Notes under the pieces: generated by a model
The model's database searches: none
Told to the model about the DNA's origin: nothing
Seen by the model: the letters and a program-made list of their open reading frames with translations, nothing else
In this document: piece after piece, positions 12,399-50,881 of the stretch
Layout: each line of letters opens with the position of its first letter
How positions within the stretch are numbered: position 1 is the stretch's first letter
DNA from: Planctomycetia bacterium
GTDB taxonomy: Bacteria > Planctomycetota > Planctomycetia > Pirellulales > UBA1268
Direction of reading: 5' to 3'
NCBI GenBank assembly: GCA_037129475.1
Contig: JBAXUY010000002.1
Location: 50,170-114,169, forward strand
DNA length: 64,000 nucleotides
Program-made: the position numbers and the translations under genes

Positions 12399-12442
12399 CT
12401 GCCCAGACCCTCTCGCTTGACGTTCGCTGCGTTGGCCGCGCG

Positions 12443-12690: not shown

Positions 12691-12771
12691 AGTTCGCTGG
12701 AATGTAGATGGCTAGCCGGTGGAAAGCTGCATTGCGGCGGGTTGCCCAGTCGCCCTATAGTCCCGCCCCTC

Positions 12772-13812: not shown

Positions 13813-13842
13813 TCAGTGGGGCTGCCGGGCACCGACCTTTCC

Positions 13843-14397
13843 ATGAAATCAGCCGCGAATCTTCACGATGCGCTCCACGCGCGGCTCGCGCAGGTGAAGC
13901 TGCTCCTTGTCGACGTCGACGGCGTGCTCACCGAGGGGGGCGTGACGTGGACGAACGAGGGGATCGAGCAGAAGACGTTCCACATCCGTGACGGCCTCGG
14001 CATCCGGCTCTGGCAGCGGGCCGGTGGCCGCACGGGAATCGTCACCGGCCGGGCGAGCCGCGTCGTGCAACTGCGGGCCGAGGAACTCGGGATCGGGATC
14101 GTGAAGCAGGGGGTCGAGGACAAGCTCGACACCACGGCGGCCATCCTCGCCGAGTGCGGTGTGTCGTGGGAGCAGACGGCCTTCGTCGGCGACGACCTCC
14201 CCGACCTCGCCGTGATGATGCGGTGCGGCGTGGGCGTGGCGGTGGCGAATGCGTGCCCCGAGGTGCTCGAGGTGGCGGCGATCGTGACCCGGCTACCCGG
14301 CGGGCAGGGGGCCGTGCGCGAGGTGATCGAGCAATTGCTCAAGGCCCGCGGCAGTTGGGAGGCGATCGTGCGCCGCTATCAGCCGCTGGCGGCCTGA
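13843..14397 (+). CDS. kdsC: KDO-8-phosphate phosphatase (HAD-IIIA, KdsC family)
   Basis: LLLVDVDGVLTEGGV ... HIRDGLGIRLWQRAG...GIVTGR ... KQGVEDKL ... AFVGDDLPDLAVM matches the KdsC pattern. ATG at 13843. Confidence 0.85.
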   Translation: MKSAANLHDALHARLAQVKLLLVDVDGVLTEGGVTWTNEGIEQKTFHIRDGLGIRLWQRAGGRTGIVTGRASRVVQLRAEELGIGIVKQGVEDKLDTTAAILAECGVSWEQTAFVGDDLPDLAVMMRCGVGVAVANACPEVLEVAAIVTRLPGGQGAVREVIEQLLKARGSWEAIVRRYQPLAA

Positions 14398-14421
14398 CGA
14401 AAGCGAAACGGGCGGGCCCTC

Positions 14422-17553: not shown

Positions 17554-17556
17554 GGC

Positions 17557-35223: not shown

Positions 35224-36059
35224 TCGACAACGCCCCGCTCCGCTCGCTCGTCCACAAGGGGCTCACGATCGAGGGCTACTCCCGCGCGGCGGTGCAGAGC
35301 TACTGGCGGATCCCTGAATTGAAATTGGGGTTCGACCTGGGCGCGCAGCCGTGGAGCTTCATGGCCACGAGCACGTGGTTTCTCACCCACACGCACCTCG
35401 ATCACATCGCGGCCCTGCCCGTGTACGTGGCCCGGCGGCGAATGATGAAGATGGAGCCGCCCACGATCTACATGCCGGAGAGCGCGATCGAGCCGATCGA
35501 GAAGCTCTTGAAGGCGGTGAGCCGGCTCGACCGCGGCCGCCTCCCCTGCACGCTCCTGCCCGCCCGGCCGGGCGACGAGATCGAGCTCTCGCGGGAGCAC
35601 GTGGTGACGGTGTCGGGCACCTGCCACACGCTGCCGAGCGTGGGATTCGTGGTGTGGGAGCGGCGGCGGAAGCTCAAGCACGAGTTTCAGGGGCTGCCCG
35701 GCGACAAGATCCGTGATCTCCGGCTCTCGGGGGTCGACGTGACGCACGAGGTGCGCACGCCGCTCGTGGCCTATCTCGGCGACAGCTCCCCGGAGGGGCT
35801 CGACCGCTGTCCGGCGATGTTCGAGGCCATGGTATTGATCACGGAGCTCACCTTCGTGGCCCACGCCCACCGCAAGGAGAAGATCCACAAGTTCGGCCAC
35901 ATGCACCTCGACGACCTGCTCGCCCGCCGCGAGCGGTTTCACAACGAGGTGATCATCGCCACGCACTTCTCCACGCGCTACACCGACGACCGCATCCGCC
36001 GGATCCTCGCCAAGAAGCTCCCCGACATGCTCGACGGCCGCCTGCACGTTTGGCTCTAG
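35220..36059 (+). CDS. MBL-fold metallo-hydrolase (RNase Z-like)
   Basis: The ATG at 35220 overlaps the scpA stop (ATGA). HxHxDH motif in WFLTHTHLDHIAALP. Further His/Asp ligands lie in TCHTLPSVGF and KFGHMHLDD. Confidence 0.8.
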   Translation: MIDNAPLRSLVHKGLTIEGYSRAAVQSYWRIPELKLGFDLGAQPWSFMATSTWFLTHTHLDHIAALPVYVARRRMMKMEPPTIYMPESAIEPIEKLLKAVSRLDRGRLPCTLLPARPGDEIELSREHVVTVSGTCHTLPSVGFVVWERRRKLKHEFQGLPGDKIRDLRLSGVDVTHEVRTPLVAYLGDSSPEGLDRCPAMFEAMVLITELTFVAHAHRKEKIHKFGHMHLDDLLARRERFHNEVIIATHFSTRYTDDRIRRILAKKLPDMLDGRLHVWL

Positions 36060-36097
36060 AACGGGCTTCAGCGTGGCTTGGCCTCGACGCGCCCAGT

Positions 36098-36277
36098 CCG
36101 GCTCGGGGCTACCCATGCTCCATCGCCGGACGTTCGCCGCGGCCCTCCCGGCCTCGGCTCACTCGACTTCGACTGCGCTTCGGCATCCTGCCTGCGCTTG
36201 TCTGCATACGCCGGCGATTGGAGCACGGATAGCCCCGAGCCTCCCCTCTTCGTAGCGACAGAGCTCCAGTTCTGTCG
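36098..36277 (+). repeat. Composite structured intergenic element, copy B (ends in a single REP hairpin)
   Basis: The 5' arm GGCTCGGGGCTA (36100..36111) pairs with TAGCCCCGAGCC (36230..36241), the same 142 nt span as copy A. It ends with GTAGCGACAGAGCT-CC-AGTTCTGTCG (36252..36277). Confidence 0.6.
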
Positions 36278-36295
36278 GTCTGTCACAATGCACGC

Positions 36296-37450
36296 ATGAA
36301 CGCTCCCCGCCATGCCTACGTGCACGTCCCGTTCTGTCGCCACCGGTGCGGCTATTGCGATTTCACGCTCGTGGCGGGGCGAGACGATCTGATCGAGCGG
36401 TATTTCGCGGCGCTCGCGATCGAAATCGAGCGAATCTCGAATGTGCCCGACGCGACGTCTGCTTCGGCGTGTCTGGAGCTAGACACGCTCTATCTTGGCG
36501 GCGGCACGCCTTCGCATCTCGGGCCCGACGGTCTACGGAAGCTCTTTGCATTGCTGCGCGAGCGGCTCGTGCCTGCCGCAGGGGCGGAGGTGACCGTGGA
36601 GGCGAATCCACTCGATGTGACCGGCGACTTCGTAACCGCCTGTCGCGATCTCGGCGTTACGCGCGTGAGTCTCGGGGGGCAGTCGCTCGATGCCGCCACG
36701 CTCCGGGCGCTCGACCGCGATCATGCGCCCGCCGACGTGCAGGGGGCCGTGAGCCGGCTGATCGACGCCGGCCTCGTCGTGAGCCTCGACCTGATGACGG
36801 CCGCGCCGGGGCAGACGCTCGCCGGGGCGGAAGGCGATCTGGCTGCCGCGGCTGCGCTCGACGTACAGCATGTGTCGGTCTACTGCCTCACGTGGGAGCA
36901 GGGGACGGCGTTCGAGTCGGCGCGGCGGCGGGGTGACCTCGTGCCGGCAGAGGAGTCGCTCGAGCGGGCAATGTTCGAGACGGCGATCGATCGGCTCGAG
37001 GCCGCCGGCTTCGAGCACTACGAGGTGAGCAACTTCGCCCGTTCGGGCTTCCGCTGCCGGCACAACGAGGCCTACTGGGACTGCCGGCCGTGGGAGGCGT
37101 TTGGCCCGGGAGCGGCCCGCTTCGACGGCCGGACGCGGATCACGAACCATCGCAGCACGACGACCTGGATCGCGAAGACGCTCGCGGGGGAGGATGCGAC
37201 GGGCGAGATCGACGCGATGACCGCCGAACAGGCGGCCCGGGAGCGGATCGTGGTGGGGTTGCGCCGCCGCGATGGCATCGACCGCGAGGCCTTTCACGCG
37301 GTGAGCGGGTTCGACCTCGACGTGCTGGCCGGACCGGCGATCGCCCGCTGGGTGGAGCGAGGGCTGGCGACCGACGATGGCGCGCGCGTGCGGCTCACGC
37401 GGGCGGGGCTGCTCGTGTCCGACGCGCTGTGGGCCGACGTGCTCACGTAG
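36296..37450 (+). CDS. hemW: Radical SAM heme chaperone HemW (oxygen-independent coproporphyrinogen oxidase-like)
   Basis: YVHVPFCRHRCGYCDF (CxxxCxxC) ... LYLGGGTPS ... EANP ... RVSLGGQS ... YEVSNFAR...CRHNEAYW. Confidence 0.9.
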   Translation: MNAPRHAYVHVPFCRHRCGYCDFTLVAGRDDLIERYFAALAIEIERISNVPDATSASACLELDTLYLGGGTPSHLGPDGLRKLFALLRERLVPAAGAEVTVEANPLDVTGDFVTACRDLGVTRVSLGGQSLDAATLRALDRDHAPADVQGAVSRLIDAGLVVSLDLMTAAPGQTLAGAEGDLAAAAALDVQHVSVYCLTWEQGTAFESARRRGDLVPAEESLERAMFETAIDRLEAAGFEHYEVSNFARSGFRCRHNEAYWDCRPWEAFGPGAARFDGRTRITNHRSTTTWIAKTLAGEDATGEIDAMTAEQAARERIVVGLRRRDGIDREAFHAVSGFDLDVLAGPAIARWVERGLATDDGARVRLTRAGLLVSDALWADVLT

Positions 37451-40400
37451 GGACGGAGCTCCAGCTCTGTCCTCCGACAGGCCTGGAGGCCCGTCGCTGC
37501 GCCCGGCGTCGCCGGGCCGCCCACGCCGCACAGGCTGCTCCGATTCCGACGAGCACGATCGTGGCCGGCTCGGGCACCACGATGATGTCGAGCGACGTGC
37601 CGCTTGCACCCACGCGCACGTAGACGTCCTTGCTTGGCAGAGCGGTGCCGCTCCAGCCGCCGGTGCCGTTCGTACCGCTGAGATTGATCGTGAACAGGCT
37701 CGTCAGGTTCATGCCCGCCGTGGCCGAGCCGAAGCCACCGGGCAGCACGAGGCTCGACAGGCTGTCGAAGCGAACGATCGGGAACACATACTGAGTGTTC
37801 GCGACGAAGTTCTGCGGCGCACCGTTCACGTCCGGTCCCGTCGAGGAGAGCGTCCAGAGGTTGAGGTTGAACGTGGACGAGTTCGACAGCCCTGACAGGT
37901 CGAGCGTGCCGCCCGTGCCGACCTGGATCAGGTCCCAGCCATTCACGTTGCCGGCGGTGCCCGAGACATCGAACAACTGCCAGTTGTAATTGCCGCCGGC
38001 CGCAAACACGGCGCCCGCACTCGTGATCGTGCCGGGCGAGTTGCCCGGCGTGATCGTGCCGCCGCTGCCCACCGTGATCGTGCCCACCGTGCCGCTGCCG
38101 GCGAGGATCGCCCCCGCGTTGATGTCGACCGCCGAGGCGAGGCTCGCGCCGGACTGCACGAACACCGTACCGGCATTGATGTCGAGCGGCCCGGTGAACG
38201 TGCTCGCTCCGGTGAACCTCACGAGGCCCGCACCGTTCTTGGCGAGCGTCCGCCCCGAGCCGGTCTCGCCGAGCGACGCGATCGTGACGTTGGTCACGGC
38301 GTTGATCGCCGAGTTGGCGGTGAGCGTGCCCGAGCCGGTGAAGGTAAAGGCGCCGTTCTCGGTCTCGTTGCCGATCGCCACACTGCCACCGAGCGACCAG
38401 GGGGTCGAGATGGTGCGTGCATCGGTGCCCGTGCTCGACAGCGTGCCGCCGTTGAGGGCGGCGGCCAAGCCGAGGGCGGCGTCGGCGCCGATCCGGATTC
38501 GGCCCGCGGAGAGCGTCGTCCCGGCCTGCGAGTTGGGAGTCGTGAGCGTGAGCGTCGCGGCCCCCGCCTTGGTGAGCGTGTAGCCGCTCACGGCGTTCAT
38601 CGAGACGTCACTGTCGAGCGTGACCGTGCTCGCGGCGAGCAGCTGGACGCCGTTGGAGAACGAGAGCAGGCCCGAGTCGGTCGTGTCGCCGAGCGTCGTG
38701 CTGCCGTTCAGGGCGACGAGATTCGCGAGGTCGCGGGGCGCGGTGCCGGTGCTCGAGAGCCGGCCGCCGGCGAGCGTGACGGTGCCGGCCGTGCCGAGCG
38801 CGTTGTCGGCGCCCAGCCGCAGCCGGCCCTCGGTGAGCGTCGTGCCGCCGGAGTAGCTGCTCGCGGCGGTGAGCGTGAGCGTGCCCGCGCCCGCCTTCGT
38901 GAGCGAGTACGTGCTGCCGGCGGCCTGGGTGATCTGGCCCATCTGTACCTCGCTCAGGAGCGCGAGGGTGCTGCTTGAGAGCAGCGTCGAGGTGCCGGTG
39001 AACGCGAGCGGGCCGTTGTCGACCGTGTCGCCGAGCGTCGAGCTCCCGTTGAGCGTCATGGCGTTGGCGATCGTGCGGGTGGCCGAGCCGGTGCCGGAGA
39101 GCGTGCCGCCGGCGAGCGACACGGTGCCGGTGCTCAAGGCGCCGTCGTTGCCCGCCCGTACGCGGCCCGCGGCGAGGATCGTGTTGCCGTGGGTGTTGGA
39201 GCCCGTCAGCGTGAGCGTGCCCGTGCCCGACTTCGTGAACGCCTGGCTCGTGCCGGCGAGCTTGGCCATCGTCACGTCGCTCACGAAGCTCACCGTCGAG
39301 GTCGTGGTGAGCGTCGTCGTGCCGGTGAACGCGAGGGGCGCGATGTCGGTGGCGTCCCCGAACGTGGCCAGGCCCGTGAGCGACACGGCGTTGCCGATCG
39401 TGCGGGCCGCGGAGCCCGTGCCAGACAGGATGCCGCCGGTGGTGAGCGTGAGCGTGCCGGTGGCGCCGAGGGCGTAGTCGTCGCCGAGCTGGAGCCGGCC
39501 CGCGTTCACGGTCGTGTTGCCGTAGGCGTTGGAGCCGGTGAGCGTGAGCGAGCCGGTGCCGCTCTTCGTGAGGGCGAACGTGCTGCCCGAGGTCTGGGTG
39601 AGCGAACCGATCGTCACGTTGCTCAGGGCGCCGATCGTGGAGCTGGCGACGAGCCGGAGCTGGTTGAGCGTCAGGTCGCCCGTGTCGGCGGCGTCGCCGA
39701 GCGTCACCGAGCCGGTGAGCGTGACCTGGTTGGCGATCGTCCGGGCGGCGGCGCCGTCGCTCGACAGGGCCCCGGTGGTGAGCGCGACCGTGCCAGACGA
39801 GCCGAAGGCGGCGTCGCTGGCGACGCGGATCCGGCCGGCGGTGAGCGTGGTGTTGCCGTAGTCGCCGGTGCCGGTGAGCGTGAGCGCGGCCGTGCCGGCC
39901 TTCGTCAGGTTGAAGCCCTGCCCCGCGATCGGGCCCATCGTCACGCTGCTGGCGATGCCCACCGTGGAGCTGGCGAGCAGGGTCGTCGTGCCGGTGAGGG
40001 CGAGCGTGCCGGAGTCGGTCGTATTCCCGAGCGTCACGCTGCCGCTTTGGATCGTGATCGCATTGGCGATCGAGCGGGCGACCGTGCCGGTGCCGGAGAG
40101 CGTGGTGCCGGCGGCGAGCGAGAGCGTGCCGGAGCCGAGGGCCGTGTCGCTGCCGAGCCGGAGAATGCCCGTGCTCAAGATCGTGTTTCCGTAGTTGCCG
40201 GAGCCGATGAGCGTGAGCGTGGCTGAACCGCTCTTCGTGAGGTCGAATCCGGCAGACGTGCCCGTGACGTTCGCGAGCGTGACGCCGCTCAACACCGTGA
40301 GCGTCCGGCTGCCGGTGAGCGTGGACGTGCCGGCGAACGTGAGGGCCGCCGTGTCGGTGGCCGCACCGAGTGTCACGTTGCCGTCGAACACGACCGGCCG

Positions 40401-43400
40401 GGAGATCGTGCGGGCGGTCGTGCCGGTGCCCGTCACCGTGACGCCCCCCGCGAACGTCGCCGTGCCGGTCGTGCCGAGCGCGTTGTCGTTGCCGAGACGG
40501 AGCACGCCGGCATTCACCACCGTGTTGCCGTAGGCATTGGAGGCGGAGAGCGTGAGCGTGCCGTTGCCCGCCTTCGTGAGCGCGTTCGAGCCGCCCGAGA
40601 CGGCGCCCGAGAGCGTCACGCTGCTCGACACCGTGAGCGTACGGTCGGCCGAGAACGAGGTCGTGCTCGAGAACGTGAGCGGCGCGGTGTCGCCCGAGGC
40701 GGCGCCGAGCGTGGCATTGCCGGCGAGCACGAGCGGCCGGGCGACGATGAGGGCGGTGGCGCCCGTGCCGGTGAGCGTGACGCCCTGGTTGAGCGTGACG
40801 GTTCCGGAACCGCCGAGGGACGTCGCATTGCCGATCCGTACCGTGCCTTCAGCGATCGTGGTGCCCGCCTGCCCGCCCGTCCCCGTGATCGTGAGCGTGC
40901 CCAGGCCCGCCTTCGTGAACAGGTACGTTCCGGAGACGACGTTCATCGTGGCGTTGCTCGCGAACGTCACCGTGCTCGCGGCGGTGAGCGTCGAGGTGCC
41001 CGTGAAGGAGAGCGCGCCGTTGTTGGTCGCGTCGCCGACCGTGACGGTGCCGCCGAGCGACACGGGGTTGGCGACCGAGCGGGCCGTGGCCCCGTCGCTC
41101 GAAAGCGTGCCGCCCGCGAGCGTCACCGCGCCGGTGCTGCCGAGGGCGAAGTCGCCGCCGAGCAGGATCCGGCCGGCTGAGAGCGTCGTGCCGCCGTAGG
41201 AGTTCGACCCGGAGAGCGTGAGCGTGCCGGCGCCGGCCTTCGTGAGCGTGCGGCTCGTGCCGTCGTTGCCGATGTTGCCCGAGAACACCACGTCGCTCGG
41301 CAGCGTGATCGTGGCGTTGGCCGTCATCGTCGCCGGGCCGGTGAACGAGAGCGTGGCGTTGTCGGTCGTGTCGCCGAGGGTCACGCTGCCGGCGAGGCCG
41401 ACCGAGTTGCCGAACGACCGCGGGTCGGAGCCGACGCCGGAGAGCGTGCCGCTCGTGAGCGTGAGCGTGCCCGAGCCGAAGGCGGTGTTCGAGCCCGCGC
41501 GAACCTCGCCGGCCGCGAGCGTGAAGCCGCCCGTGAAGGTGTTGCCGCCGTTGATCGTGAGCGAGCCGGCCCCCGACTTCGAGAGGCCGAGCCCGCCCGA
41601 GAGCGTGCCCGACAGGACGGCGTCGCTCGCCGCGACGAGCGACTGCACGCCCGAGCCGGTGCCGTTGCCGGAGAGCGTGAGCGTGCCCGAGTTGACGGCG
41701 TCGCCGAGCGTCGTGGTGGCCGAGATCACGAAGTCGTTGGCGAGCGTGCGGGCGGTCGTGCCGTCGCTCGTGAGGCCGCCGCCGGCGAACGTCACCGTGC
41801 CCGACCCGAGCGGGCTGTCGGCCCCGAGCTGGAGCAGGCCGCCCTGCACGTTCACGGCGCCGCTGCCGCTGCTCGTGCCGCTGGCGAGCAGCGTGCCCGA
41901 GGCGAGCGTCGTGGGGCCGCCGTAGGTGTTGGTGCCCGAGAGCACGAGCAGGCCCGCGCCCGTCTTCGTGAAGCCGTTCGCGTCACCAGTGCCGCTGCCG
42001 ATGGGGCCGGAGAGCCTCACGGTGCCGTCGTTGGAAATCGTGGTGGTCGTGACGAGCGTCGTCGGCCCGGCGAACGTGAGGCTGCCGGTCGAGGTGCCGC
42101 CGAGCGTGACGGGGCCCTCCACGCGAAACTCGCCGCCGTAGGTGCGGGCCCCCGCGTCGGTGCTCTGGATCACGACGGTGCCGGTGGAGCCCGAGAGCGC
42201 CGTGCCCTTCGCGGTGAGCGAGCCGGCCACGCCGCCGAGCACGTTCGACCCGGGGCCGATCGCGAGCACGCCCTGCTGGATCTCGGTGCCGCCGACGTAG
42301 GTGTTGGCGGTGTTGGTCATCGTGAGCACCTGGCTCGCATCGGAGCCGCTGAAGACGAGCTTCAGGCTGCCGGCGGAACCCGAGTCGGTGAACGTGGGCG
42401 TGAGCGTGCCGCCGGCGGTGAGCGTGAGCGTGCTCGCGGAGCCACTCGAGTTGGTGACGATGCCCGTGCCGCTCACCGATTCGAACGAGTCGGAGTAGCC
42501 GGCGAGGTCGAACGTGCCGGAGAGGCCGCTCACGCCCGTGAGGATCTGGTTCGACGCCCCGAGCTTCACGGTCGCGCCGGCCGCCACGGAGGCGATCGCG
42601 TCGGTCTGGCCGGCCCTGGTGCTCGAGAGCACGAGCGTGCCGCCCTTCACCGTCCAGTCGGTTTCCACGGCATTCGTCGACGAGCCGGAGAATTCGACCG
42701 TGCCCCCGGTGACGCGGAGTTCCCCCGGAAGGTTCGCCGTGCCCGTCGTCCGGTTGATCGCGCCCGAGAGCGTGAGCCTGCTGCCCGGGGCGCTCGACAG
42801 TTCCACGATTCCGCCCGCCGTCTGGTAGACGGTGCCGGTGACCGTCTGATCGACGGGCGTGGAGAGTTGCAGCGTGCCGACGTTGCCCGAGTAACTCGAC
42901 GCCGTGAACTGGCCCGTCGGGGCGGGGGCCGTGGCCGAGAGCGACAGGACGAGCGTGCCATAGTCGACTTTCGTCGCACCCGAGTATGCGGCCGTGGCCG
43001 AGAGCGTTCCGGCACCGGTCTTGGAGAGACCACCTGAGCCGGTGATCGGCGTGGCGAAGTTCACCGTCTGGCCGTTGGTGTGGATGCTCGCCTGCTTGCC
43101 GCTGGCCACCGCGGCGAACTTGCCCGAGAGGTCGGTGTTCGTGCCGCTGTAGAAGAGCGTGCCGCCTTGGAAGTCGATTTCGTTGCCCGTGGCACCGGTC
43201 ACGTTCGCGAGCTGGTTGTCGTTCGAGAAGTCGAGATAGCCGGAGATGAGCGTGACGTCGCCCGTGAACGTGTTGGCCGAGCCGAGCCGGACGCGGCCGC
43301 CGCCGCCGTCGCCGCGGATCACGACCTGCGTGGGGTTCGTTCCGTCGGCGATCGCCGGGGCGAACGTGAGCACGCCCTGGCCGCCGCCGAGCCGGTAGGT

Positions 43401-44033
43401 CTGCGTGCCGCCCGCGTCGGTGTAGGGCGTGAACGATCCGTTGTAGGTGAGCGTGGAGGCCGAGCCAAGCGACAGGTTCGCGATGTTCGTGAGCCCGGCG
43501 TAGTCGCGTTTGTTGAAGTCGATCGTTTCGTTCGTGCTGCTCGCCGTGATCGCGAGGGCGCCGTTGGGGTTGTCGTTGATCCGGTTGCTGGCGAGCCATG
43601 AGGTGACGCTGCCGTAGGGGCCCGACGCGGAGAGGGCACCTCCGGAGAGGGTCACGTTGCCCTCCGCGGGGAACGCGGTGCCGGACGAGAACGTGACCAG
43701 ACCGTTGCCGATCACGGTGCCGCCGGAGTACGTGTTCGTGCCGGAGAGCGTGAGCGACGAGCCCCCCAGCTTCTGGAGCGTCGCGGAGCCCGACACCGGT
43801 CCTGAAATCGTGATCGAGTTGCCGGCGTTGATCGTGCGGGTGCCGGTGCCGGCGAGCGCGAACGGGCCGGTGAACGTGAGCCCGCCCGACACGCCGCTGC
43901 CTGTCGATCCGGCGGTGATGCTGCCGGACAGCGTCACGCCGTTGGCGATCGTGCGGTTCGAGCCGGTGGAGTAGATGTAGCCGCTCGAGAGCACGAGCGC
44001 GTCGGATCCGAGCGCGGCGTCGTTGCCGAGCAC
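37443..44033 (-). CDS. Giant autotransporter-associated beta-strand repeat protein, C-terminal portion with PEP-CTERM anchor (downstream part of a frameshifted gene)
   Basis: 2,196 aa ORF with no signal peptide and a GTG start inside repeat sequence. Dozens of units of the type LTKxGxGTLTLSGSNxYxGxTxxxxGxLxLG. C-terminus VVPEPATIVLVGIGAACAAWAARRRR is a PEP-CTERM motif. It is contiguous with the upstream ORF if one G is added at 44041..44048. Confidence 0.85.
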   Translation of the reverse strand: MLGNDAALGSDALVLSSGYIYSTGSNRTIANGVTLSGSITAGSTGSGVSGGLTFTGPFALAGTGTRTINAGNSITISGPVSGSATLQKLGGSSLTLSGTNTYSGGTVIGNGLVTFSSGTAFPAEGNVTLSGGALSASGPYGSVTSWLASNRINDNPNGALAITASSTNETIDFNKRDYAGLTNIANLSLGSASTLTYNGSFTPYTDAGGTQTYRLGGGQGVLTFAPAIADGTNPTQVVIRGDGGGGRVRLGSANTFTGDVTLISGYLDFSNDNQLANVTGATGNEIDFQGGTLFYSGTNTDLSGKFAAVASGKQASIHTNGQTVNFATPITGSGGLSKTGAGTLSATAAYSGATKVDYGTLVLSLSATAPAPTGQFTASSYSGNVGTLQLSTPVDQTVTGTVYQTAGGIVELSSAPGSRLTLSGAINRTTGTANLPGELRVTGGTVEFSGSSTNAVETDWTVKGGTLVLSSTRAGQTDAIASVAAGATVKLGASNQILTGVSGLSGTFDLAGYSDSFESVSGTGIVTNSSGSASTLTLTAGGTLTPTFTDSGSAGSLKLVFSGSDASQVLTMTNTANTYVGGTEIQQGVLAIGPGSNVLGGVAGSLTAKGTALSGSTGTVVIQSTDAGARTYGGEFRVEGPVTLGGTSTGSLTFAGPTTLVTTTTISNDGTVRLSGPIGSGTGDANGFTKTGAGLLVLSGTNTYGGPTTLASGTLLASGTSSGSGAVNVQGGLLQLGADSPLGSGTVTFAGGGLTSDGTTARTLANDFVISATTTLGDAVNSGTLTLSGNGTGSGVQSLVAASDAVLSGTLSGGLGLSKSGAGSLTINGGNTFTGGFTLAAGEVRAGSNTAFGSGTLTLTSGTLSGVGSDPRSFGNSVGLAGSVTLGDTTDNATLSFTGPATMTANATITLPSDVVFSGNIGNDGTSRTLTKAGAGTLTLSGSNSYGGTTLSAGRILLGGDFALGSTGAVTLAGGTLSSDGATARSVANPVSLGGTVTVGDATNNGALSFTGTSTLTAASTVTFASNATMNVVSGTYLFTKAGLGTLTITGTGGQAGTTIAEGTVRIGNATSLGGSGTVTLNQGVTLTGTGATALIVARPLVLAGNATLGAASGDTAPLTFSSTTSFSADRTLTVSSSVTLSGAVSGGSNALTKAGNGTLTLSASNAYGNTVVNAGVLRLGNDNALGTTGTATFAGGVTVTGTGTTARTISRPVVFDGNVTLGAATDTAALTFAGTSTLTGSRTLTVLSGVTLANVTGTSAGFDLTKSGSATLTLIGSGNYGNTILSTGILRLGSDTALGSGTLSLAAGTTLSGTGTVARSIANAITIQSGSVTLGNTTDSGTLALTGTTTLLASSTVGIASSVTMGPIAGQGFNLTKAGTAALTLTGTGDYGNTTLTAGRIRVASDAAFGSSGTVALTTGALSSDGAAARTIANQVTLTGSVTLGDAADTGDLTLNQLRLVASSTIGALSNVTIGSLTQTSGSTFALTKSGTGSLTLTGSNAYGNTTVNAGRLQLGDDYALGATGTLTLTTGGILSGTGSAARTIGNAVSLTGLATFGDATDIAPLAFTGTTTLTTTSTVSFVSDVTMAKLAGTSQAFTKSGTGTLTLTGSNTHGNTILAAGRVRAGNDGALSTGTVSLAGGTLSGTGSATRTIANAMTLNGSSTLGDTVDNGPLAFTGTSTLLSSSTLALLSEVQMGQITQAAGSTYSLTKAGAGTLTLTAASSYSGGTTLTEGRLRLGADNALGTAGTVTLAGGRLSSTGTAPRDLANLVALNGSTTLGDTTDSGLLSFSNGVQLLAASTVTLDSDVSMNAVSGYTLTKAGAATLTLTTPNSQAGTTLSAGRIRIGADAALGLAAALNGGTLSSTGTDARTISTPWSLGGSVAIGNETENGAFTFTGSGTLTANSAINAVTNVTIASLGETGSGRTLAKNGAGLVRFTGASTFTGPLDINAGTVFVQSGASLASAVDINAGAILAGSGTVGTITVGSGGTITPGNSPGTITSAGAVFAAGGNYNWQLFDVSGTAGNVNGWDLIQVGTGGTLDLSGLSNSSTFNLNLWTLSSTGPDVNGAPQNFVANTQYVFPIVRFDSLSSLVLPGGFGSATAGMNLTSLFTINLSGTNGTGGWSGTALPSKDVYVRVGASGTSLDIIVVPEPATIVLVGIGAACAAWAARRRRAQRRASRPVGGQSWSSVPT
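37447..37500 (+). repeat. REP-like two-hairpin element (copy e)
   Basis: GTAGGGACGGAGCT-CC-AGCTCTGTCC-TC-CGACAGGCCTGGAGGCCCGTCGCTGC. It contains the hemW TAG (37448..37450). On the other strand it is translated as the last 18 codons of the giant protein. Confidence 0.85.
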
Positions 44034-47000
44034 GAGCGAGCCCCCCCCTGCACGTTCGTCGTGCCGTTCTTACCAGCTCCGGCCGACGCACTGACGATGA
44101 GGGTGCCGGCTGACACGTTCGTGGTGCCGCTGTAGGTGTTGGCTCCGTTGAGCGTGAGCGTCGAGTTGCCGGCCTTCGTGAAGCCGTAGCTGCCGGTGAG
44201 CGGGCCCGTGAGCGTCACGTCGGCGCCGAGGGTGAGCGTGCGGTCGCCGGTGAGCACGCCCGTGCTGGAGAGCGTGAGGGCGGCGTTGTTCGTGCCGCTG
44301 CCGAACGTCGTGTTGCCGTCGAAGCTCACGCGCGAGTTGCCGAGCGCCTGGGCCACGGTGCCCGACGTGGCCAGCGTGCCGCCCCCGAGCGAGAGGGTGC
44401 CCGTGCCGAGAGCCGTGCCCGAGCCCACGAGCGTGGTGCCGGCGTTCAGCGACACCGGGCCGGAGTAGCCCGTGTTGGTGCCGGTGACGAGGAGCGTGCC
44501 GGCCCCGGCGTGCACGAACGTGCCGCTCCCGGCGAGCGTGGTGGCGAGCGTGGTCGTACCCGAGGCGGCCGTGGCGGTGCCCGAGGTGAACCGGAGCGTG
44601 CCGGTGTTCACGAGGTCGCCGGGGCCGGAGAGCGCGAGCGTGGTGACGGTGGTGTTGCCGGAGCCGGAGAACGTGCCGCCGGCGACCGTGAGGCTCGTGG
44701 CGGTGTTGGTGACCATGTTGGCGAACACGCCGCCGGCGTTGATCGTCACGTCGCCCGCGACGCCGTTGGTCGCGGAGTTGAGGAGCGTGCCCGAGCCGCT
44801 CACCGCGATCGCCCCGTTGAGCTTCGTGCCCGAGCCACTCACGGCGAGCGTGCCTTCGCTGACGGTGCCGCCGCCACCGAACGAACTCGTGCCGTTCAGG
44901 GTGAGCGTGCCGGTGCCTGTCTTCGTGAACGCGTTGCTGCCGGTGAGGCCGCGGGTGAAGAGCACGTCGCTGGCGAACGAGAGGGTGCCGCTGCCGACGA
45001 GCGAGCTCGTGCCGGTGAACGTGAGCGAGCCGGTGTTGACGGCGTCGCCGAGCGTCGAGTTGCCCGTGAACTGCACGGAGTTGTTGGCAATGCTGCGTGC
45101 CGTCGCCCCGTTGGAAGAGAGCTGGATCCCGCCGATCGAGAGGGCTCCGGTGCCGAAGGCCGTGCCCGTGGCGAGTTGCACGAGACCTGAACCGCCGAGC
45201 GTGGCGGTGCCCGAGTAGCCGGTGTTGGCCGTGTTCATCACGAGCGTGGCGCTGCCGCTGCGGTCGAAGCTGCTCGTGCCGCTGATCGGCGCGGTGAATG
45301 CGACCGTGCCACTGGTCGCCGTGACGTTGATCCCGTTCGTGGCCGTGATCGTGCCGGTGTTGAGCAGCGAGCCGCCGGCGCCCTGAACCTGGAGCCGGCC
45401 GACCGTCGTGCTCACGGTGGTCGCGAACGCGCCGCCGTCGAGCGTGACCGTGCCTGAGAGGGCATTCGCCCCAGCCGACGAATTCGTCAGTGTGCCGGAC
45501 GTGTTGACCAAGACGTTGCCAGTGAGCGTGGAAGAGGCGGCCAAGGTGAGCCCGCCACCAGTGATCGTCGTGCCACCAAAGCCGTTGGAGCCGCTCAGGG
45601 TGAGCGTGCCGGCCCCGGCCTTCGTGAAGGCGCCGGTGCCCGAGAGCCGGGTGAACGCGACGTCGCTCGCGAGCGTGAGCGTGCGGTCGCCGACGAGCGT
45701 GCCGGTGCCGGAGGCGAACGTGAGCGTGCCGGTGTTCACGGCGTCGCCGAGCATCGTGTCGGCGACGACCCGGATCTGCGTGTTGGCGAACGTGCGGGCC
45801 GTCGTGGAGTTCGACGAGAGCTGGGCGCCCTCGAGCGTGAGGAGGCCCGTGCCGAGCGAGGAGTTGTTGCCGGCCTGCACGAGTCCTGCGCTCCCGGTCG
45901 ACACGGTGGCCGTGTATGCGGCGAGGCTGCCGCTCATCACGAGCGTGCCGGTGCCGGTGCGGGTGAAGGAGCCGCTCGATCCGGACAGCGGCGCCGAGAA
46001 CGTGGTCGTGCCGCTCGCCGCCGTGACGTTGATCGCCGTGGCGGTGAGCGTGCCCGTGTTCGTCACCGCGCCGCCGCCGCCGCCGAGGGTGAGCGTGCCG
46101 AGCGAGGTGGCGCTCGCCCCGGTAAACGTGCCGCCATTCACCGTGACGTTGCCCGTGATGCCGTTGGCGACGCTGTTGGTGAGCGTGCCGGCCTTGAGCG
46201 TGACGGAGCCTGACACCGAGCCGCCCGCGCCGATCGTGAGGTTGCCCGCGCCGTCCTTCGTGAGCGTGCCGCCGTTGCCCAGCACGGAGTTGATCGCCGC
46301 GGCACCGGCGTTGTTGACCGCGTAGGAGCCGGCGGAGAGCGTGCCGGTGGAGACCGTGCCGCCCGTCAGCGAAAACGACGCGAGCGTCTGGGAGAAGCCG
46401 CCGAGGTCGAACGTGCCGCCCGACATCGAGAGCGTGCCGGTCGTCAGGAGCCTGTCGGCACCGCCGAGCTTGAGCGTGCCGGCGGAGATCGACGTCGAGC
46501 CGGTGTAGGTGTTGGCCGCGTTCAGGAGCAGGAGGCCGGCGCCGTTGTTCGCCAGCGACATCGATCCTGTGAGGACGCTGCCGATCGTGGCCGTGCCGGA
46601 GGCGAAGTTGGCCGTGAAGGGCCCGTTGACCGTGAGCGTGCCGCTCGTGATCGCGCTCGTGCCGCTCGTCACCGACCCCGAGGCGAGCGTCTGGGAGTTG
46701 CCCGCCCCGAGGTCGAACGTGCCGGCGCCCGTGATCGAGAGCGTGCCGGTGCTGGCCAGTACGTTGCTGCCCCCGAGTTTCAGCGTGCCGCCGGCGAGCG
46801 TGGTCGCGCCGGTGTAGGTGCTCGTGCCGTTGAGCAGGAGCGTGCCGGCGCCGCTCTTCGTGAGCCCGGCGGCACCGGCCAGTGTGGCATTCACCGTGGC
46901 CGTGCCCGTGGCGACGCTGGCGGAGAAGGAGCCCGTTGCGGTCAGCGTGCCGCTCGTGATCGTGCTCGTGCCGCTCGTGATGTTCAGGGCGGCAAGCTGC

Positions 47001-48568
47001 TGCGACTTGGCGTTTAGATCGAGTGTCGCGGCGCCCAGCGACAGCGTGCCGGTCGTGATGAGCCTGTTGTTGTCGCCCAGTTGCAGGGTGCCGGCACTCA
47101 CCGTCGTGAGGCCGGTATAGGTGTTGGAGCCATTGAGCAGGAGCGTGCCGGCGCCGGTCTTCGTGAGCGTCTTGCCTGAACCCGCGAGGACGGTACCCAC
47201 GGTGACGGTGCCCGAGGCGTTGCTGAAACTGAAGCCGGTGCTTCCGGTCGTCAGCGTTCCGCCCGTCACCGTGCCCGCCCCGGTGGCGCTGAAATTGCCG
47301 ATCGTCTCGGAGAAGCCGCCGAGATCGAACGTGCCGCTGGCCAGCGTGACGTTCGCCGTGTCGGCGATCCGGTTGCTCGCGCCCAGCTTGAGCGACCCCG
47401 CATTGATCGTGTAGTCGCCCGTGGACGTGTTGCTGCCGGACAGCACGAGCGTGCCGGCGCCGCTCTTGGCGAACGTGCCCGACCCCGCGAGGACCGTCGC
47501 GAGCGTGTTCGTGCCGGAGTCGATCTGGAACGAAAATCCGTTCGAGGCCGAGATCGTGCCGGAGCCGATGCCGACGTTCGTGGCGTTGAACTGGGCGAAC
47601 GACTGGGTGCCGGTCATCACGAGCGAGCCGCTCGTCATCGTGAGCGTGCCGCTGCCGGAGCCGAGGGCGTTGGCGACGCCGAGCGTGAGCGTGCCGCCGC
47701 CGCTCACGGTGGTCGTGTCCGTGTAGGTGTTGGTCGCGCTCAGCGTGAGGTTGCCGGAGCCCGTCTTCGTGAGGCCGCCCGAGCCGGCGAGGACGGTGCC
47801 GACCGTGGCCGTGCCGGCGTCGTTCGTGAATGAGTAGTTGCTGGCGGTGAGCGAGCCCCCGACGAGGCCGACGCCGGCGGACGCGGAGAACGTGCCTGAC
47901 GAGACGTTGAAACCCGTGAGATCGAGCACGCCGCCCGACATCGTGACGGCGCCGGTCGAGGGAAGCGCGACGTCCGAGGCCGCCTTCAGCGTGCCCGACG
48001 TGATCGTCGTGCCGCCCGAGTAGGAGTTGTTGCCGGAGAGCGCGAGCGTGCCCGGCCCGCTCAGCGTGAGCCCTCCCGCTCCGGCGATCACGCCCGACAG
48101 CGTGAGGGCGTTCGCGGAACTGTTGGTCACGAGGAGCGTGTCGTTGAGGCGCAGTTCCGCCGAAATCGTGTTGCTGCCGCTCGCGGCCGTCTGGTTCAGG
48201 ATGGCCGAGCCGGACGACGTGACGTCGAACGTGAGCTTGTTCGCGGGGGCCGCCGACGAGATCGTGTACGCCGCCGTCCCGGTGGGATCGCCGAGATCGA
48301 GCCTGCCGAGCGTCACAGGCCCGTTGAGCGAGATCGTTTGCCCACCAGTGATGTCGGCCGTGACGCTCGCCCAAGCGCCGACAGCATTCGGCGCAGTGCC
48401 GGTGCTCCACAACGAACCCGTTGTCCAAAGAAATGCACCACTGCCCGTCTGCAGCCACGTCACCTGCGCACTCGCCTCCGGCAGCCCCACGAGGGCCGCG
48501 ATCGCAAGGAGCAGGCCGCGGAGGGAGGCGGAGCGGAGGAAACCCATCCGTCGAAGGTCGTATGGCAT
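43934..48568 (-). CDS. Giant autotransporter-associated beta-strand repeat protein, N-terminal portion with signal peptide (upstream part of a frameshifted gene)
   Basis: ORF 43934..48691 with the start placed at MPYDLRRMGFLRSASLRGLLLAIAALVGLPEASAQ (ATG at 48568, alternative at 48547). The same repeat family continues throughout. The last 37 aa or so after the G8 tract (ARSCSATTPRSDPTRSCSRAATSTPPARTARSPTA) look like out-of-frame translation. Confidence 0.85.
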   Translation of the reverse strand: MPYDLRRMGFLRSASLRGLLLAIAALVGLPEASAQVTWLQTGSGAFLWTTGSLWSTGTAPNAVGAWASVTADITGGQTISLNGPVTLGRLDLGDPTGTAAYTISSAAPANKLTFDVTSSGSAILNQTAASGSNTISAELRLNDTLLVTNSSANALTLSGVIAGAGGLTLSGPGTLALSGNNSYSGGTTITSGTLKAASDVALPSTGAVTMSGGVLDLTGFNVSSGTFSASAGVGLVGGSLTASNYSFTNDAGTATVGTVLAGSGGLTKTGSGNLTLSATNTYTDTTTVSGGGTLTLGVANALGSGSGTLTMTSGSLVMTGTQSFAQFNATNVGIGSGTISASNGFSFQIDSGTNTLATVLAGSGTFAKSGAGTLVLSGSNTSTGDYTINAGSLKLGASNRIADTANVTLASGTFDLGGFSETIGNFSATGAGTVTGGTLTTGSTGFSFSNASGTVTVGTVLAGSGKTLTKTGAGTLLLNGSNTYTGLTTVSAGTLQLGDNNRLITTGTLSLGAATLDLNAKSQQLAALNITSGTSTITSGTLTATGSFSASVATGTATVNATLAGAAGLTKSGAGTLLLNGTSTYTGATTLAGGTLKLGGSNVLASTGTLSITGAGTFDLGAGNSQTLASGSVTSGTSAITSGTLTVNGPFTANFASGTATIGSVLTGSMSLANNGAGLLLLNAANTYTGSTSISAGTLKLGGADRLLTTGTLSMSGGTFDLGGFSQTLASFSLTGGTVSTGTLSAGSYAVNNAGAAAINSVLGNGGTLTKDGAGNLTIGAGGSVSGSVTLKAGTLTNSVANGITGNVTVNGGTFTGASATSLGTLTLGGGGGAVTNTGTLTATAINVTAASGTTTFSAPLSGSSGSFTRTGTGTLVMSGSLAAYTATVSTGSAGLVQAGNNSSLGTGLLTLEGAQLSSNSTTARTFANTQIRVVADTMLGDAVNTGTLTFASGTGTLVGDRTLTLASDVAFTRLSGTGAFTKAGAGTLTLSGSNGFGGTTITGGGLTLAASSTLTGNVLVNTSGTLTNSSAGANALSGTVTLDGGAFATTVSTTVGRLQVQGAGGSLLNTGTITATNGINVTATSGTVAFTAPISGTSSFDRSGSATLVMNTANTGYSGTATLGGSGLVQLATGTAFGTGALSIGGIQLSSNGATARSIANNSVQFTGNSTLGDAVNTGSLTFTGTSSLVGSGTLSFASDVLFTRGLTGSNAFTKTGTGTLTLNGTSSFGGGGTVSEGTLAVSGSGTKLNGAIAVSGSGTLLNSATNGVAGDVTINAGGVFANMVTNTATSLTVAGGTFSGSGNTTVTTLALSGPGDLVNTGTLRFTSGTATAASGTTTLATTLAGSGTFVHAGAGTLLVTGTNTGYSGPVSLNAGTTLVGSGTALGTGTLSLGGGTLATSGTVAQALGNSRVSFDGNTTFGSGTNNAALTLSSTGVLTGDRTLTLGADVTLTGPLTGSYGFTKAGNSTLTLNGANTYSGTTNVSAGTLIVSASAGAGKNGTTNVQGGARSCSATTPRSDPTRSCSRAATSTPPARTARSPTA
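44041..44048 (-). repeat. G8 homopolymer (C8 on the plus strand) at the junction of the two giant ORFs
   Basis: The coding strand reads AAC GTG CAG GGG GGG GCT CGC TCG. With 9 G it reads Q G G G S L V L G N D A A L G, which is exactly the frame of ORF 37443..44033. Confidence 0.9.
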
Positions 48569-48918
48569 GGTGGAACGCGGGAGGTGGGGTCGGGGCGGGA
48601 TTGAGGGGTGGGCAAGACGAACGGGCTGGGCTGACAACTCTGCCCGGTAAAACTCTGCGGTGTCGTTCATGGCTCGAGAATCAGCGATCACGCACCCGAA
48701 GGCGTGAACTGACGAGCGAAACGAGGGCCGACGACCGCGGGGAGAGGCTTACAACCAGAACGACCGGAACAATCCGTTCCGATCACACCGGCTATCGCCG
48801 ATAAGAACACTGCCGCAAAAGAAGGCCAGCGATTCTGCTCAGGCAGAACACGTTGACGGGTGCGTGCAGTAGCGTTTCCTTGGGAATCTTGGGGGCGGAT
48901 CGTTCCGCCGACCCATGT

Positions 48919-48946
48919 AGGGTACGTGGCCATTCCGGTGTGTCAA
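48919..48946 (-). promoter_or_regulatory. Candidate promoter of the giant surface-protein gene
   Basis: The minus strand reads TTGACA-16 nt-TACCCT, with an A/T-rich stretch (AAAATCAATTTCAGGCAATCCAAATTC) directly upstream. It lies in the least GC-rich patch of the window, about 350 nt upstream of the start codon. Confidence 0.35.
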
Positions 48947-49232
48947 GAATTTGGATTGCCTGAAATTGATTTTGCGCGATCCGACAATCCCGTGCGCAAA
49001 CCGTTGCTGTGCAATGCTTTCCGGGGGCGCCGCCCTGCCGAATTCACCCGCGAGAGGGGGTGATGGCTATGCTCGCGCATCCGATTGCCCCGCTGTGCGC
49101 GGCCTGCGGCTGCGGGGGTTCATCGACCTCGATTCTGATGGCTTCGTGGCCGAGGTGAAGAAGATCCGCGGCAAGAAAAACCCGCTCTCCACGGCCGCAG
49201 TCACAAGCCTGCGGGAGGAGTTCGCCGGCGCC

Positions 49233-49346
49233 GCGATCGCCCGCCGGGTGGAGCAGGGGCTTGCCACCGACGACGGCTCGCGCGTGCGGCTCACGCGGGC
49301 GGGGCTGCTCGTGTCCGACGCGCTGTGGGCCGACGTGCTCACGTAG
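49233..49346 (+). pseudogene. Duplicated 3' fragment of hemW (last 37 or so codons), fused to unrelated upstream sequence
   Basis: It encodes AIARRVEQGLATDDGSRVRLTRAGLLVSDALWADVLT, against AIARWVERGLATDDGARVRLTRAGLLVSDALWADVLT at the hemW C-terminus. The DNA is identical over 49279..49368 versus 37383..37472. No hemW-like sequence lies upstream of 49233. Confidence 0.7.
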
Positions 49347-49454
49347 GGACGGAGCTCCAGCTCTGTCCATCCGACAGGCCTGGAGGCCCGTCGCTACGTT
49401 CATTCGACAGGCCTGGAGGCCTGTCGCTACGTCGGTCTGGAGGCCCGTCGCTAC
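49343..49454 (+). repeat. REP-like element cluster (copy f: hairpin 1 plus three copies of hairpin 2)
   Basis: GTAGGGACGGAGCTCCAGCTCTGTCC, then CGACAGGCCTGGAGGCCCGTCGCTAC, CGACAGGCCTGGAGGCCTGTCGCTAC and a truncated GGTCTGGAGGCCCGTCGCTAC. The pntB stop (CTA on the plus strand, 49451..49453) is inside the last unit. Confidence 0.85.
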
Positions 49455-50881
49455 GAGAGGGCGGCGGTGAGGTCGAGAATCGCCTTCTTGCCGTCGGCGA
49501 AGTACATGAGCGTGTTGTCGGCGGCGAAGAGGGGATTGGGGATCCCCGCGAAGCCGGGCGAGAGCGATCGCTTCACCACGACCACTGTCTTCGCCTTGTC
49601 GACGTCGAGGATCGGCATCCCTGCGATCGGGCTCTTGGGGTCGGTGCGGGCCGATGGGTTCACCACGTCGTTGGCCCCGATCACGATCGCCACGTCGGTC
49701 TCCGGGAACGTGGGGTTGATGTCGTCCATCTCCCGGAGCTTCTCGTAGGGGATGTCGGCCTCCGCGAGGAGCACGTTCATGTGGCCCGGCATCCGGCCGG
49801 CTACGGGATGGATCGCGTACTCCACCGTCGTGCCCCGCTTCTCGAGGGCGTTCGCCAGCTCGCGGACGGCGTGCTGGGCCTGGGCCACGGCGAGGCCGTA
49901 GCCGGGCACGATCACCACCCGCTCGGCCCCTTCGAGCACCATCGCGATCTCCTCGGCGCTCGCGCTCTTCACCTTGCCCGCGTAGACGTCGTCGGCGTTC
50001 GCCGCCGTCGTCGTGCCGAGGCCACCGAAGAGCACGCCTGCGAGCGAGCGGTTCATCGCCTGGCACATGATCGCCGTGAGGATCAGCCCCGAGGCACCCA
50101 CCAGCGAGCCGGCGATCACGAGCACCGAGTTGTCGATCACGAAGCCGGCCGCGGCCGCGGCGAGGCCCGAATAACTGTTGAGAAGACAGATCACGACCGG
50201 CATGTCGGCCCCGCCGATCGGCATCGTGAGCGTGCAGCCCAAGGCGCTGCCCACGATCACGAGCAGCCAGAAGAGCAGGTTCGACGACGGGTTGGCACAC
50301 ACGCCCCAGATGAGCAGGAGCGTGGCGACGGCGAGGCCGAGGTTGATCCAATGGCGGTTGGGATCGGTCCACGCCTTCTTGAACTGCGGCAGCTCCTCGA
50401 GCTTGCCGAAGGCCACGAGGCTGCCCCAGAACGTGACGGCGCCGATCAGGCCGGTGAGCGCCGTGGCGATCGCGAACTGCGTCCAGGCGGGGAGCGGCGT
50501 GGCTGCGGCCTTGGCCGCGGCCGTGGCGTTCCAGAGCTCGGCGCCGGCCACGAGCGTGGAGGCCGCGCCGCCGAAGCCGTTCAAGAGCGCCACCATCTGC
50601 GGCATGCCCGTCATCGGATACTTGAGCGCCATCACCGCCCCGATCGCGCCGCCGATCGCTGCGGCAATCCCGAGCATCACGAGCGGCCAGGCGCCCTGGG
50701 CCGCCACGCTCTGCATCACGGGCTTCTCGAAGCAGGCTGCGAGGATCGCGATCGCCATGCCGGCGGCGCCGAGGTAGTTGCCCTTCACGGCCGTGCGTGG
50801 GCCCGTCATGAGCTTGAACGCCACGATGAACAGCATCGAGGCGGTGAGATACGCGAGGTTGATCCAGGCTTGGCTCGACAT
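49451..50881 (-). CDS. pntB: NAD(P) transhydrogenase subunit beta
   Basis: Full-length PntB pattern: an N-terminal polytopic domain and a C-terminal NADP(H) domain (VIVPGYGLAVAQAQH...HPVAGRMPGHMNVLLAEA...VIGANDVVNP). Confidence 0.95.
   Translation of the reverse strand: MSSQAWINLAYLTASMLFIVAFKLMTGPRTAVKGNYLGAAGMAIAILAACFEKPVMQSVAAQGAWPLVMLGIAAAIGGAIGAVMALKYPMTGMPQMVALLNGFGGAASTLVAGAELWNATAAAKAAATPLPAWTQFAIATALTGLIGAVTFWGSLVAFGKLEELPQFKKAWTDPNRHWINLGLAVATLLLIWGVCANPSSNLLFWLLVIVGSALGCTLTMPIGGADMPVVICLLNSYSGLAAAAAGFVIDNSVLVIAGSLVGASGLILTAIMCQAMNRSLAGVLFGGLGTTTAANADDVYAGKVKSASAEEIAMVLEGAERVVIVPGYGLAVAQAQHAVRELANALEKRGTTVEYAIHPVAGRMPGHMNVLLAEADIPYEKLREMDDINPTFPETDVAIVIGANDVVNPSARTDPKSPIAGMPILDVDKAKTVVVVKRSLSPGFAGIPNPLFAADNTLMYFADGKKAILDLTAALS

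Follow-up and report, generated by a model that had tools for sequence, protein, structure and literature searches.

Duplication of the hemW 3' end around a giant surface-protein cassette in a Planctomycetia genome, read as a probable recombination scar and not as an att-site pair

In a 64-kb stretch of a metagenome-assembled genome (MAG) contig of a Planctomycetia bacterium (hereafter the window), the 3' end of hemW, the gene of the radical SAM heme chaperone, is present a second time on the far side of a block that holds a giant gene for a PATR-repeat, PEP-CTERM surface protein. Both copies end in a doublet of repetitive extragenic palindromic (REP) elements, and the second one adjoins pntB. 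This direct repeat is considered here as a recombination scar and not as a pair of att sites, with a probability of roughly 0.6. The cassette carrying the giant gene and the hemW duplication would be separate events, the duplication being specific to this genome, because two related loci (L081 and L089) carry the giant gene without a duplication of hemW. Comparisons were performed on 87 related loci (80 from a one-genome-per-species set, the rest from metagenome contigs), and the census of gene arrangements was established on 60 Pirellulales loci whose hemW is at least 58% identical.

Extent and identity of the direct repeat

The two copies, as delimited by pairwise alignment and an exact check, extend over positions 37326-37500 (left; plus strand, last 41 hemW codons and REP doublet) and 49222-49397 (right). 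Their perfect core of 90 nt on the plus strand (37383-37472, equal to 49279-49368) is not extendable at either end and is the longest exact repeat in the 64 kb, the runner-up being a 29-nt repeat of REP elements. In the 46 nt upstream of the core, 7 mismatches separate 37337-37382 from 49233-49278. The initial annotation, which gave the repeat as 37337-37500 and 49233-49397 with a 90-bp perfect core and 7 upstream mismatches, was confirmed by the alignment and the exact check. The hemW-derived sequence of the right copy nevertheless begins further left, at 49222-49224, and over this longer upstream arm 10-11 mismatches are counted in the first 55-57 nt, or 13 in 61 nt. On the 3' side of the core, the right copy has an extra A at 49369, followed by 26 identical positions, a G/A mismatch and two final matching bases that close the copies at 37500 and 49397; of the downstream differences first described, the indel and the later mismatch were retained and the substitution adjacent to the indel was not, as the single extra A suffices.

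The hemW 3' end, searched against the window with BLASTN, gave a single further copy, of 123 nt (E = 3e-47, 91.9% identity). The repeat is therefore composite: its hemW tail of about 125 nt occurs at these two sites only, while its last 55 nt or so are a REP doublet that is dispersed in the window, which refines the first description of a repeat made of the hemW 3' end and a REP element.

Identity between the copies is mosaic, with 0 mismatches in the 90 nt of the core beside 10 in 55 (13 in 61) at the 5' edge, where a hemW-like arm of 55 nt is about 82% identical to the resident copy. Were the 7 differences spread evenly over 136 nt, the probability that all of them fall within the first 46 would be about 5e-4 (our own arithmetic). 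Chance is thus an unlikely source of the contrast, and the pattern implies a crossover or a gene-conversion tract between the two copies: a perfect core beside a divergent 5' edge shows that the copies recombined after the duplication.

The junction between the orphan hemW fragment and a methyltransferase gene fragment

The right copy is an orphan, as first described: it encodes 41 hemW codons and a stop (49222-49346, plus strand; partial match to Pfam HemN_C, E = 2e-4), and no hemW sequence is found upstream of 49222. On its left lies an internal fragment, of about 42 codons, of a restriction-modification (RM) methyltransferase gene of the Eco57I family, type IIG (49106-49233, plus strand, identified by homology). 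This fragment of 128 nt is truncated at both ends and is 90.6% identical at the nucleotide level to positions 1188-1315 of locus L086. An exhaustive phmmer search with the fused peptide (...GFIDLDSDGFVAEVKKIRGKKNPLSTAAVTSLREEFAG) returned 55 matches, to the C-terminal region of Eco57I-family type IIG RM methyltransferases; protein P0122 is 83% identical to the RM fragment peptide, and in P0137 (550 aa, with Eco57I, N6_Mtase, MmeI_Mtase and TaqI_C domains and a PglX-like similarity in NCBIfam) the fragment aligns at residues 453-494. The fragment is a nonfunctional gene remnant, because only about 42 codons remain.

Three-way alignment places the joint between the two fragments at 49218-49233 (plus strand), where GAGTTCGCCGGCGCCG matches both the RM gene and the hemW alleles with 1-2 mismatches each. 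The left edge of the orphan is thus a microhomology junction (GCCGGCGCCG) of about 10 nt in the middle of the RM reading frame: RM homologues continue with '...EFAGTVEPAQ...' and the window turns to the hemW sequence '...EFAGAAIARR...', the sequence common to both parents at the switch point being GAGTTCGCCGGC(G/A)CCG. The joint accordingly has the appearance of a microhomology-mediated illegitimate join, and not of the terminus of an element. A filler of 45 nt (49061-49105), which matched neither the rest of the window nor any of the loci retrieved, separates the RM fragment from the end of the giant-gene cassette.

In the source MAG, positions 49098-49349 (plus strand) are annotated as a hypothetical protein of 83 aa (P0121, WCR51_00825). 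This ORF (open reading frame) is an in-frame chimera of an RM methyltransferase fragment and the hemW C-terminus, and very probably not a real gene. The RM/hemW fusion peptide found only this source ORF in a word-indexed protein search, and nothing in a tblastn search against plasmids.

Within the hemW part, two codons of the resident gene are derived: CGA (Arg) replaces CAG (Gln) and GCG (Ala) replaces TCG (Ser), the codons found in the orphan, in L088 and in L019; L081 agrees with these three in its residues. The orphan in turn has a unique, derived replacement of Trp by Arg, consistent with pseudogene decay; the 45 other hemW sequences compared all keep Trp there. Polarisation with L088 and L019 thus places changes on both branches, resident and orphan. 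At its 5' edge the orphan differs from the resident copy about as much as orthologues of other species do. A profile of hemW divergence against L081, L019 and L083 detected no recombination breakpoint near 37383, and does not distinguish which of the two edges, resident or orphan, is the odd one.

Arrangements of the locus in relatives

In 27 of the 60 loci pntB follows hemW at less than 300 nt (empty site). This is the commonest state, and the check proposed in the initial annotation, namely whether hemW is directly followed by pntB where the block is absent, thus gave a positive answer. The distance is 0.4-1.1 kb in 6 loci, five of which (L008, L083-L085 and L088) hold there a pair of genes, one RHH-like (ribbon-helix-helix) and one of 142 aa, the sixth (L022) having a gap of 409 nt. 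The pnt operon is missing from 11 loci, in which the rplM side follows hemW. A giant PATR gene stands after hemW in 4 loci from three populations (L019; L081 and L082; L089), and 12 loci are uninformative, being rearranged or cut off by a contig end.

The closest relative, L088 (hemW 91% identical), has the order hemW, RHH-like/142-aa pair, pntB, without the giant gene. It aligns as L081 minus positions 11149-18631, one end of this indel (L081 18632) lying just past a conserved region upstream of the giant gene, and the corresponding right end of the cassette is at about 49060 in the window. The cassette is thus a clean presence/absence polymorphism. The ancestral direct neighbour of hemW is pntB. 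In L081 (hemW 90% identical) and L089 (84%), where hemW, the giant gene and pntB are fully visible, there is no second hemW fragment; none of the three giant-gene populations shows the duplication, and these two provide the complete loci. A self-BLAST of the hemW end in the 87 loci gave secondary matches only in REP sequence 3' of the hemW stop. A metagenome scan with the conserved upstream block returned a single contig (L087), 100% identical to L081, and no new population.

These arrangements bear on the site-specific integration proposed in the initial annotation and on a rival explanation built on it, in which the repeats would be the attL and attR sites of a decayed island that carried an RM system and perhaps the giant gene, supplied a replacement hemW 3' end and later lost its integrase and cargo. 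Several observations speak for such an island: the repeats bracket a segment that is missing from most relatives, the right copy is an orphan 3' end adjoining the ancestral neighbour pntB, a fragment of an Eco57I-family defence gene stands just inside the right repeat, and the identical core with its divergent upstream arm looks like an att core. However, L081 and L089 carry the giant gene at this site but not the repeat, the RM/hemW joint is a microhomology in the middle of an ORF and not the end of an element, the repeat stops exactly at the REP-doublet boundary, and the divergent arm is hemW-like, which is not expected of an attP arm. No integrase, excisionase or transposase is present in the bracketed segment, as had been noticed from the outset, and there is no room for one or for a remnant, the segment consisting of the giant ORF, a conserved upstream region of 0.5 kb, the 45-nt filler and the 128-nt RM fragment. 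No tRNA or tmRNA gene was detected anywhere in the window, and a tRNA-type att site is therefore excluded. It also counts against the island that we know of no element family that targets hemW, the literature not having been searched for one. Site-specific integration was consequently not retained as the origin of the repeats, and the island is considered unlikely.

The segment beside pntB was compared in the loci that carry the two-gene module (L081 18729-19420; L083 6651-7342; L088 1504-2204; L008 11300-12003). Its first gene gave weak RHH/RelB-like matches (E of about 0.01-0.03); the second (142 aa) has a PIN-like N-terminal motif and no Pfam or NCBIfam match, so that a PIN toxin is not confirmed. 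The module is absent from the window, where the RM/hemW patchwork stands in its place.

Other loci differ in further ways. Loci L001 and L019 both come from the MAG RFUD01 (isolate WB5_1A_201) and show two hemW genes with the same upstream synteny, one followed by the giant gene and the other lacking both the giant gene and the pnt operon; this bin probably mixes two populations. In L012, at least 10 kb of other sequence follows hemW (1889-11889), and in L025, L026 and L038 the 3' side of hemW shows other sequence or a rearranged order, for example an HD-domain gene split around hemW. These four loci suggest further structural variation at the site.

REP elements at the boundaries of the repeat

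The resident hemW (36296-37450, plus strand; Pfam Radical_SAM and HemN_C) is intact and 100% identical to P0001, a protein named HemW by NCBI in a Planctomycetia MAG (the source); exact-protein look-ups with hemW and pntB of the window returned no record. The GTAG tag of the adjoining REP includes the hemW stop codon, TAG (37448-37450). The left REP doublet, or REPIN (REP doublet forming a hairpin), is formed by two inverted GTAG-tagged REPs (37446-37500, plus strand; recognised from its dispersed copies and its hairpin fold) and follows the hemW stop, with the conserved C-terminal codons of the giant gene on its other side. The right one (49342-49397, plus strand; REP pattern and alignment) ends the direct repeat and is followed by one more REP unit and one partial unit (49398-49455, plus strand; REP pattern), the last GTAG tag of which, on the minus strand, provides the stop codon of pntB (49451-49453).

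Five copies of the doublet are present in the window, namely those of the two repeat copies (the right one at 49348) and three others, at 12598, 21393 and 53899, in unrelated flanking sequence. A degenerate REP pattern gave 21 matches in the window against 1.3 expected by chance, and the doublet folds as a single long hairpin (-19.4 kcal/mol, z = -3.9). The units are imperfect palindromes with GTAG at one end, for example CGTAG(G/C)GAC(G/A)GAGCTCCAGCTCTGTC with its inverted partner. GTAG-tagged REPs are present in Planctomycetes, where they often donate TAG stops and can sit inside ORFs (PMC3733652); the hemW stop, the pntB stop and the read-through of the giant ORF described below match these traits. 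On the right, both copies of the repeat stop where the REPIN stops. No REPIN of this kind follows hemW in the relatives L081 and L019. In L089, another REP variant (GTAGGACAGGCTNNAGCCTGTC) flanks the cassette on both sides in direct orientation (11146-11240 and 18138-18162, 25 nt identical), and REP-flanked cassettes therefore recur at this site.

The precise coincidence of the repeat with the REPIN end, the REP cluster at the destination and the GTAG tag, which is recognised by REP-associated tyrosine transposase (RAYT) enzymes (PMC3733652), could be accounted for if RAYT or another REP-targeted single-strand transposition had moved the REPIN and about 125 nt of hemW as a unit to the REP cluster beside pntB. 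Against this, the four other REPINs of the window share no flanking sequence with one another, the left end of the moved piece is a microhomology junction and not a REP/GTAG site, the divergent 5' edge is left unexplained, and no RAYT gene was identified in the window, whose ORFs were not scanned systematically for the Y1 transposase domain. This mechanism is regarded as extremely unlikely.

The giant gene and its cassette

The giant gene (37443-48570, minus strand, about 3,700 codons) is intact apart from a -1 frameshift that splits it into two ORFs (37443-44033 and 43934-48691). Its start, at about 48570, was read by eye, and a signal peptide is present. The two ORFs contain 11 and 9 stretches matched by PATR (PF12951; E = 1.6e-41 and 2.1e-44), and the C-terminus is a PEP-CTERM sorting signal (PF07589, E = 5e-6) of the form VPEP...RRRR. 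The ORF has lost its native stop and runs on past RRRR for about 20 codons through the left REPIN. The frame switch, mapped with the orthologues of L081 and L089, is located at a C8 tract on the plus strand (44041-44048; G8 in the coding, minus strand), which is the sole homopolymer of at least 8 nt in the 64 kb. A tract of nine G would restore the frame (...TNVQGGGSLVLGNDAALG...) in agreement with the orthologues, and the same glycines are encoded in L081 and L089 by GGC codons, not by a homopolymer. The frameshift may reflect an error of sequencing or assembly, or a switch that turns the gene on and off by slipped-strand mispairing, and both explanations are equally good.

This frameshift, the many internal repeats of the giant gene and the metagenomic origin of the genome raise the question of an assembly artefact, in which contigs of co-occurring strains would have been joined at the shared hemW-3'/REPIN stretch or within the repetitive giant gene, and the two copies would not be on one chromosome; the 5' part of the orphan, which resembles a different allele, points in the same direction. 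The RM/hemW junction, however, must exist in some real molecule, the exact stretch shared by the two copies is only 90 nt, below a typical read length, and the assemblies of L081, L087 and L089 show the same order of hemW, giant gene, upstream region and pntB. An artefact is therefore held to be very unlikely.

The right end of the cassette is a conserved non-coding region (48789-49060, delimited by alignment with L081 and L089) that is 81.7% identical to L081 (18348-18620) and 81% identical to L089. It includes a block of 73 nt (48809-48881; L081 18366-18440; L089 about 17920-17990) with 1-2 substitutions across the three genomes, located about 240-310 nt upstream of the start of giant genes that are themselves only 64-70% identical. 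A palindrome, TTCTGC-N4-GCAGAA, is present in the block, which can fold into a long stem, has no match in Rfam and, as it hardly varies, shows no covariation. It is a candidate operator, promoter or leader of the cassette. Nucleotide identity between the window and L081 is 64-70% in the giant gene, against 87-93% for the flanks; in the comparison with L019, identity is 82.8% across hemW and the giant gene and 84.8% in the upstream flank. The adhesin alleles are thus out of step with the phylogeny of the flanks, either by allele replacement or by very fast evolution.

The composition of the block, which had been proposed as a means of recognising acquired DNA, was compared: tetranucleotide frequencies deviate strongly from those of the flanks, and the G + C fractions are similar (0.70-0.72 against 0.67-0.70). 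This comparison is uninformative because the block is an internally repetitive gene rich in Gly, Ser and Thr. A search of Rfam over 35500-50500 gave no match at the gathering threshold and, in a permissive scan, one sub-threshold DnaX match; a promoter and terminator scan around the left repeat copy found nothing.

On the far side of the cassette, pntB (NAD(P) transhydrogenase beta subunit; 49451-50881, minus strand; Pfam PNTB, E = 7e-178) is convergent with hemW and is followed on the same strand by pntA2 and pntA1. The neighbouring genes are housekeeping genes (HD-domain hydrolase, HIT, ScpA, pntAB, rplM/rpsI).

A proposed history of the locus

The scar would have been formed in a convergent hemW/pntB gap that is rich in REPs and is a hotspot of cargo turnover, the cargo in relatives being either the giant PATR/PEP-CTERM cassette or the RHH and PIN-like pair, to which the window adds an RM fragment. 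The patchwork of about 340 nt at 49061-49397 (filler, RM fragment, 41 hemW codons, REPIN), present in this genome only, stands where relatives carry the RHH/PIN-like pair. Its hemW piece would have been joined illegitimately on the left, through about 10 nt of microhomology in the RM reading frame, and homologously on the right, where hemW-3'/REP sequences were already present next to pntB. The succession of hemW tail, REPIN, REPs and pntB on the right looks like half of an empty site, joined on the left to what was then an RM gene or RM remnant. Three sources of the hemW piece may be envisaged: a second allele, imported as a fragment of an empty site that was joined homologously at one end and illegitimately at the other; a second allele on a circularised foreign segment, inserted in the manner of Campbell; or the resident copy itself, duplicated long ago by REP-primed break repair, whose edge would have decayed while its core was kept homogenised. 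Whichever the source, crossover or gene conversion has since taken place between the two copies. A scheme with a tandem duplication and a later REP-REP deletion was ranked lower, as more steps are required and the divergent 5' edge is left unexplained.

Some observations weigh against the scar, or limit how far it can be specified. An integrative element would leave the same geometry: a variable segment between the repeats, the orphaned 3' end beyond it and a fragment of a mobile-type defence gene just inside. The 5' part of the orphan is about equidistant from the resident copy (10 differences in 55), L088 (10 in 55) and L019 (6 in 55), and so does not single out one source of the hemW fragment. 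As the next-best hemW match is at 91% and no genome of the same species is available, a deleted or pre-event allele is not observable. The two copies are on one molecule only if the MAG assembly of a repetitive 11-kb gene is correct, and the role of the repeats in deletion is purely inferential.

With these points in mind, the scar may nevertheless have a consequence. RecA could plausibly use the 166-bp direct repeats for a scarless deletion, and the perfect core of 90 nt exceeds the minimal length for RecA-dependent exchange. Recombination between the copies would remove the 11.9-kb cassette and regenerate the arrangement hemW, REP, pntB found in empty-site relatives, and hemW would stay intact because the core encodes identical residues. 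The involvement of REPs and the use of the repeats for RecA-mediated deletion, which the initial annotation had kept as second choices, fit the evidence. A more elaborate scheme can be imagined, with two levels of switching, the poly-G tract turning the giant gene reversibly off and on and the REPIN-anchored hemW-tail repeats allowing its irreversible, scarless loss; in Planctomycetes, giant surface-protein cassettes would then land at, and take off from, REP clusters at the ends of convergent genes, and REPINs would be able to carry adjacent host sequence. It is highly speculative and is given very little credence here. The repeat structure itself has no evident function.

The locus is an instance of known processes, namely REPINs, illegitimate and homologous recombination, and the turnover of cassettes at a hotspot. 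Its significance is modest and the current understanding of mobile elements is left unchanged. A footprint that would pass for that of a textbook island, with the 3' end of a gene duplicated across an insert, can arise without an integrase from REPs and illegitimate recombination, which calls for caution in island-prediction rules. In uncultured Pirellulales, genes are gained and lost at a hotspot in the convergent hemW/pntB gap, the giant adhesin cassette being there in some close relatives and missing from others, with alleles far more divergent than the flanking genes, and, if the proposed deletion does take place, this strain would have a cheap route to shed an 11-kb surface-protein gene.

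Comparison with known systems

Islands bounded by attL and attR, which are integrated at the 3' end of a tRNA, tmRNA or protein gene, share with this locus the repeats of a gene 3' end, the orphan on the far side, the empty sites in relatives and the intact target gene. Unlike such islands, the locus has no recombinase, its cargo occurs elsewhere at the same site without repeats, its boundaries are an illegitimate mid-ORF joint and a REPIN end, and its outer arm is target-like but divergent.

The REP elements resemble the GTAG REPs and REPINs known as RAYT/TnpA-REP repeats (PMC3733652, PMC3337134) by the GTAG tag and imperfect palindrome, the hairpin of the inverted doublet, the dispersal of copies at the ends of convergent genes, the donation of TAG stops and the presence of one copy in an ORF. 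They differ from them in that one REPIN was duplicated together with 125 nt of coding flank, which is not known of REPIN spread.

RecA-mediated deletion between direct repeats is the system to which the possible loss of the cassette would belong. As in that system, repeats of at least 100 nt with a perfect core bracket a dispensable cassette, and the core is evidence of a past exchange; unlike in it, no deleted allele is observed in this species, and the repeats are partly coding and not formed by REPs alone. RecA-dependent deletions and duplications between dispersed direct repeats include the REP-mediated rearrangements described in enterobacteria.

For the patchwork there is a parallel with homology-facilitated illegitimate recombination, microhomology-mediated end joining (MMEJ) and synthesis-dependent strand annealing (SDSA) with an ectopic template. 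The process is deduced here from sequence only, and to our knowledge natural transformation is not documented for these Pirellulales. The products are alike: one end has extended homology (hemW-3'/REP), the other has a microhomology of 6-12 nt, and a patchwork of short pieces from unrelated genes lies at the join.

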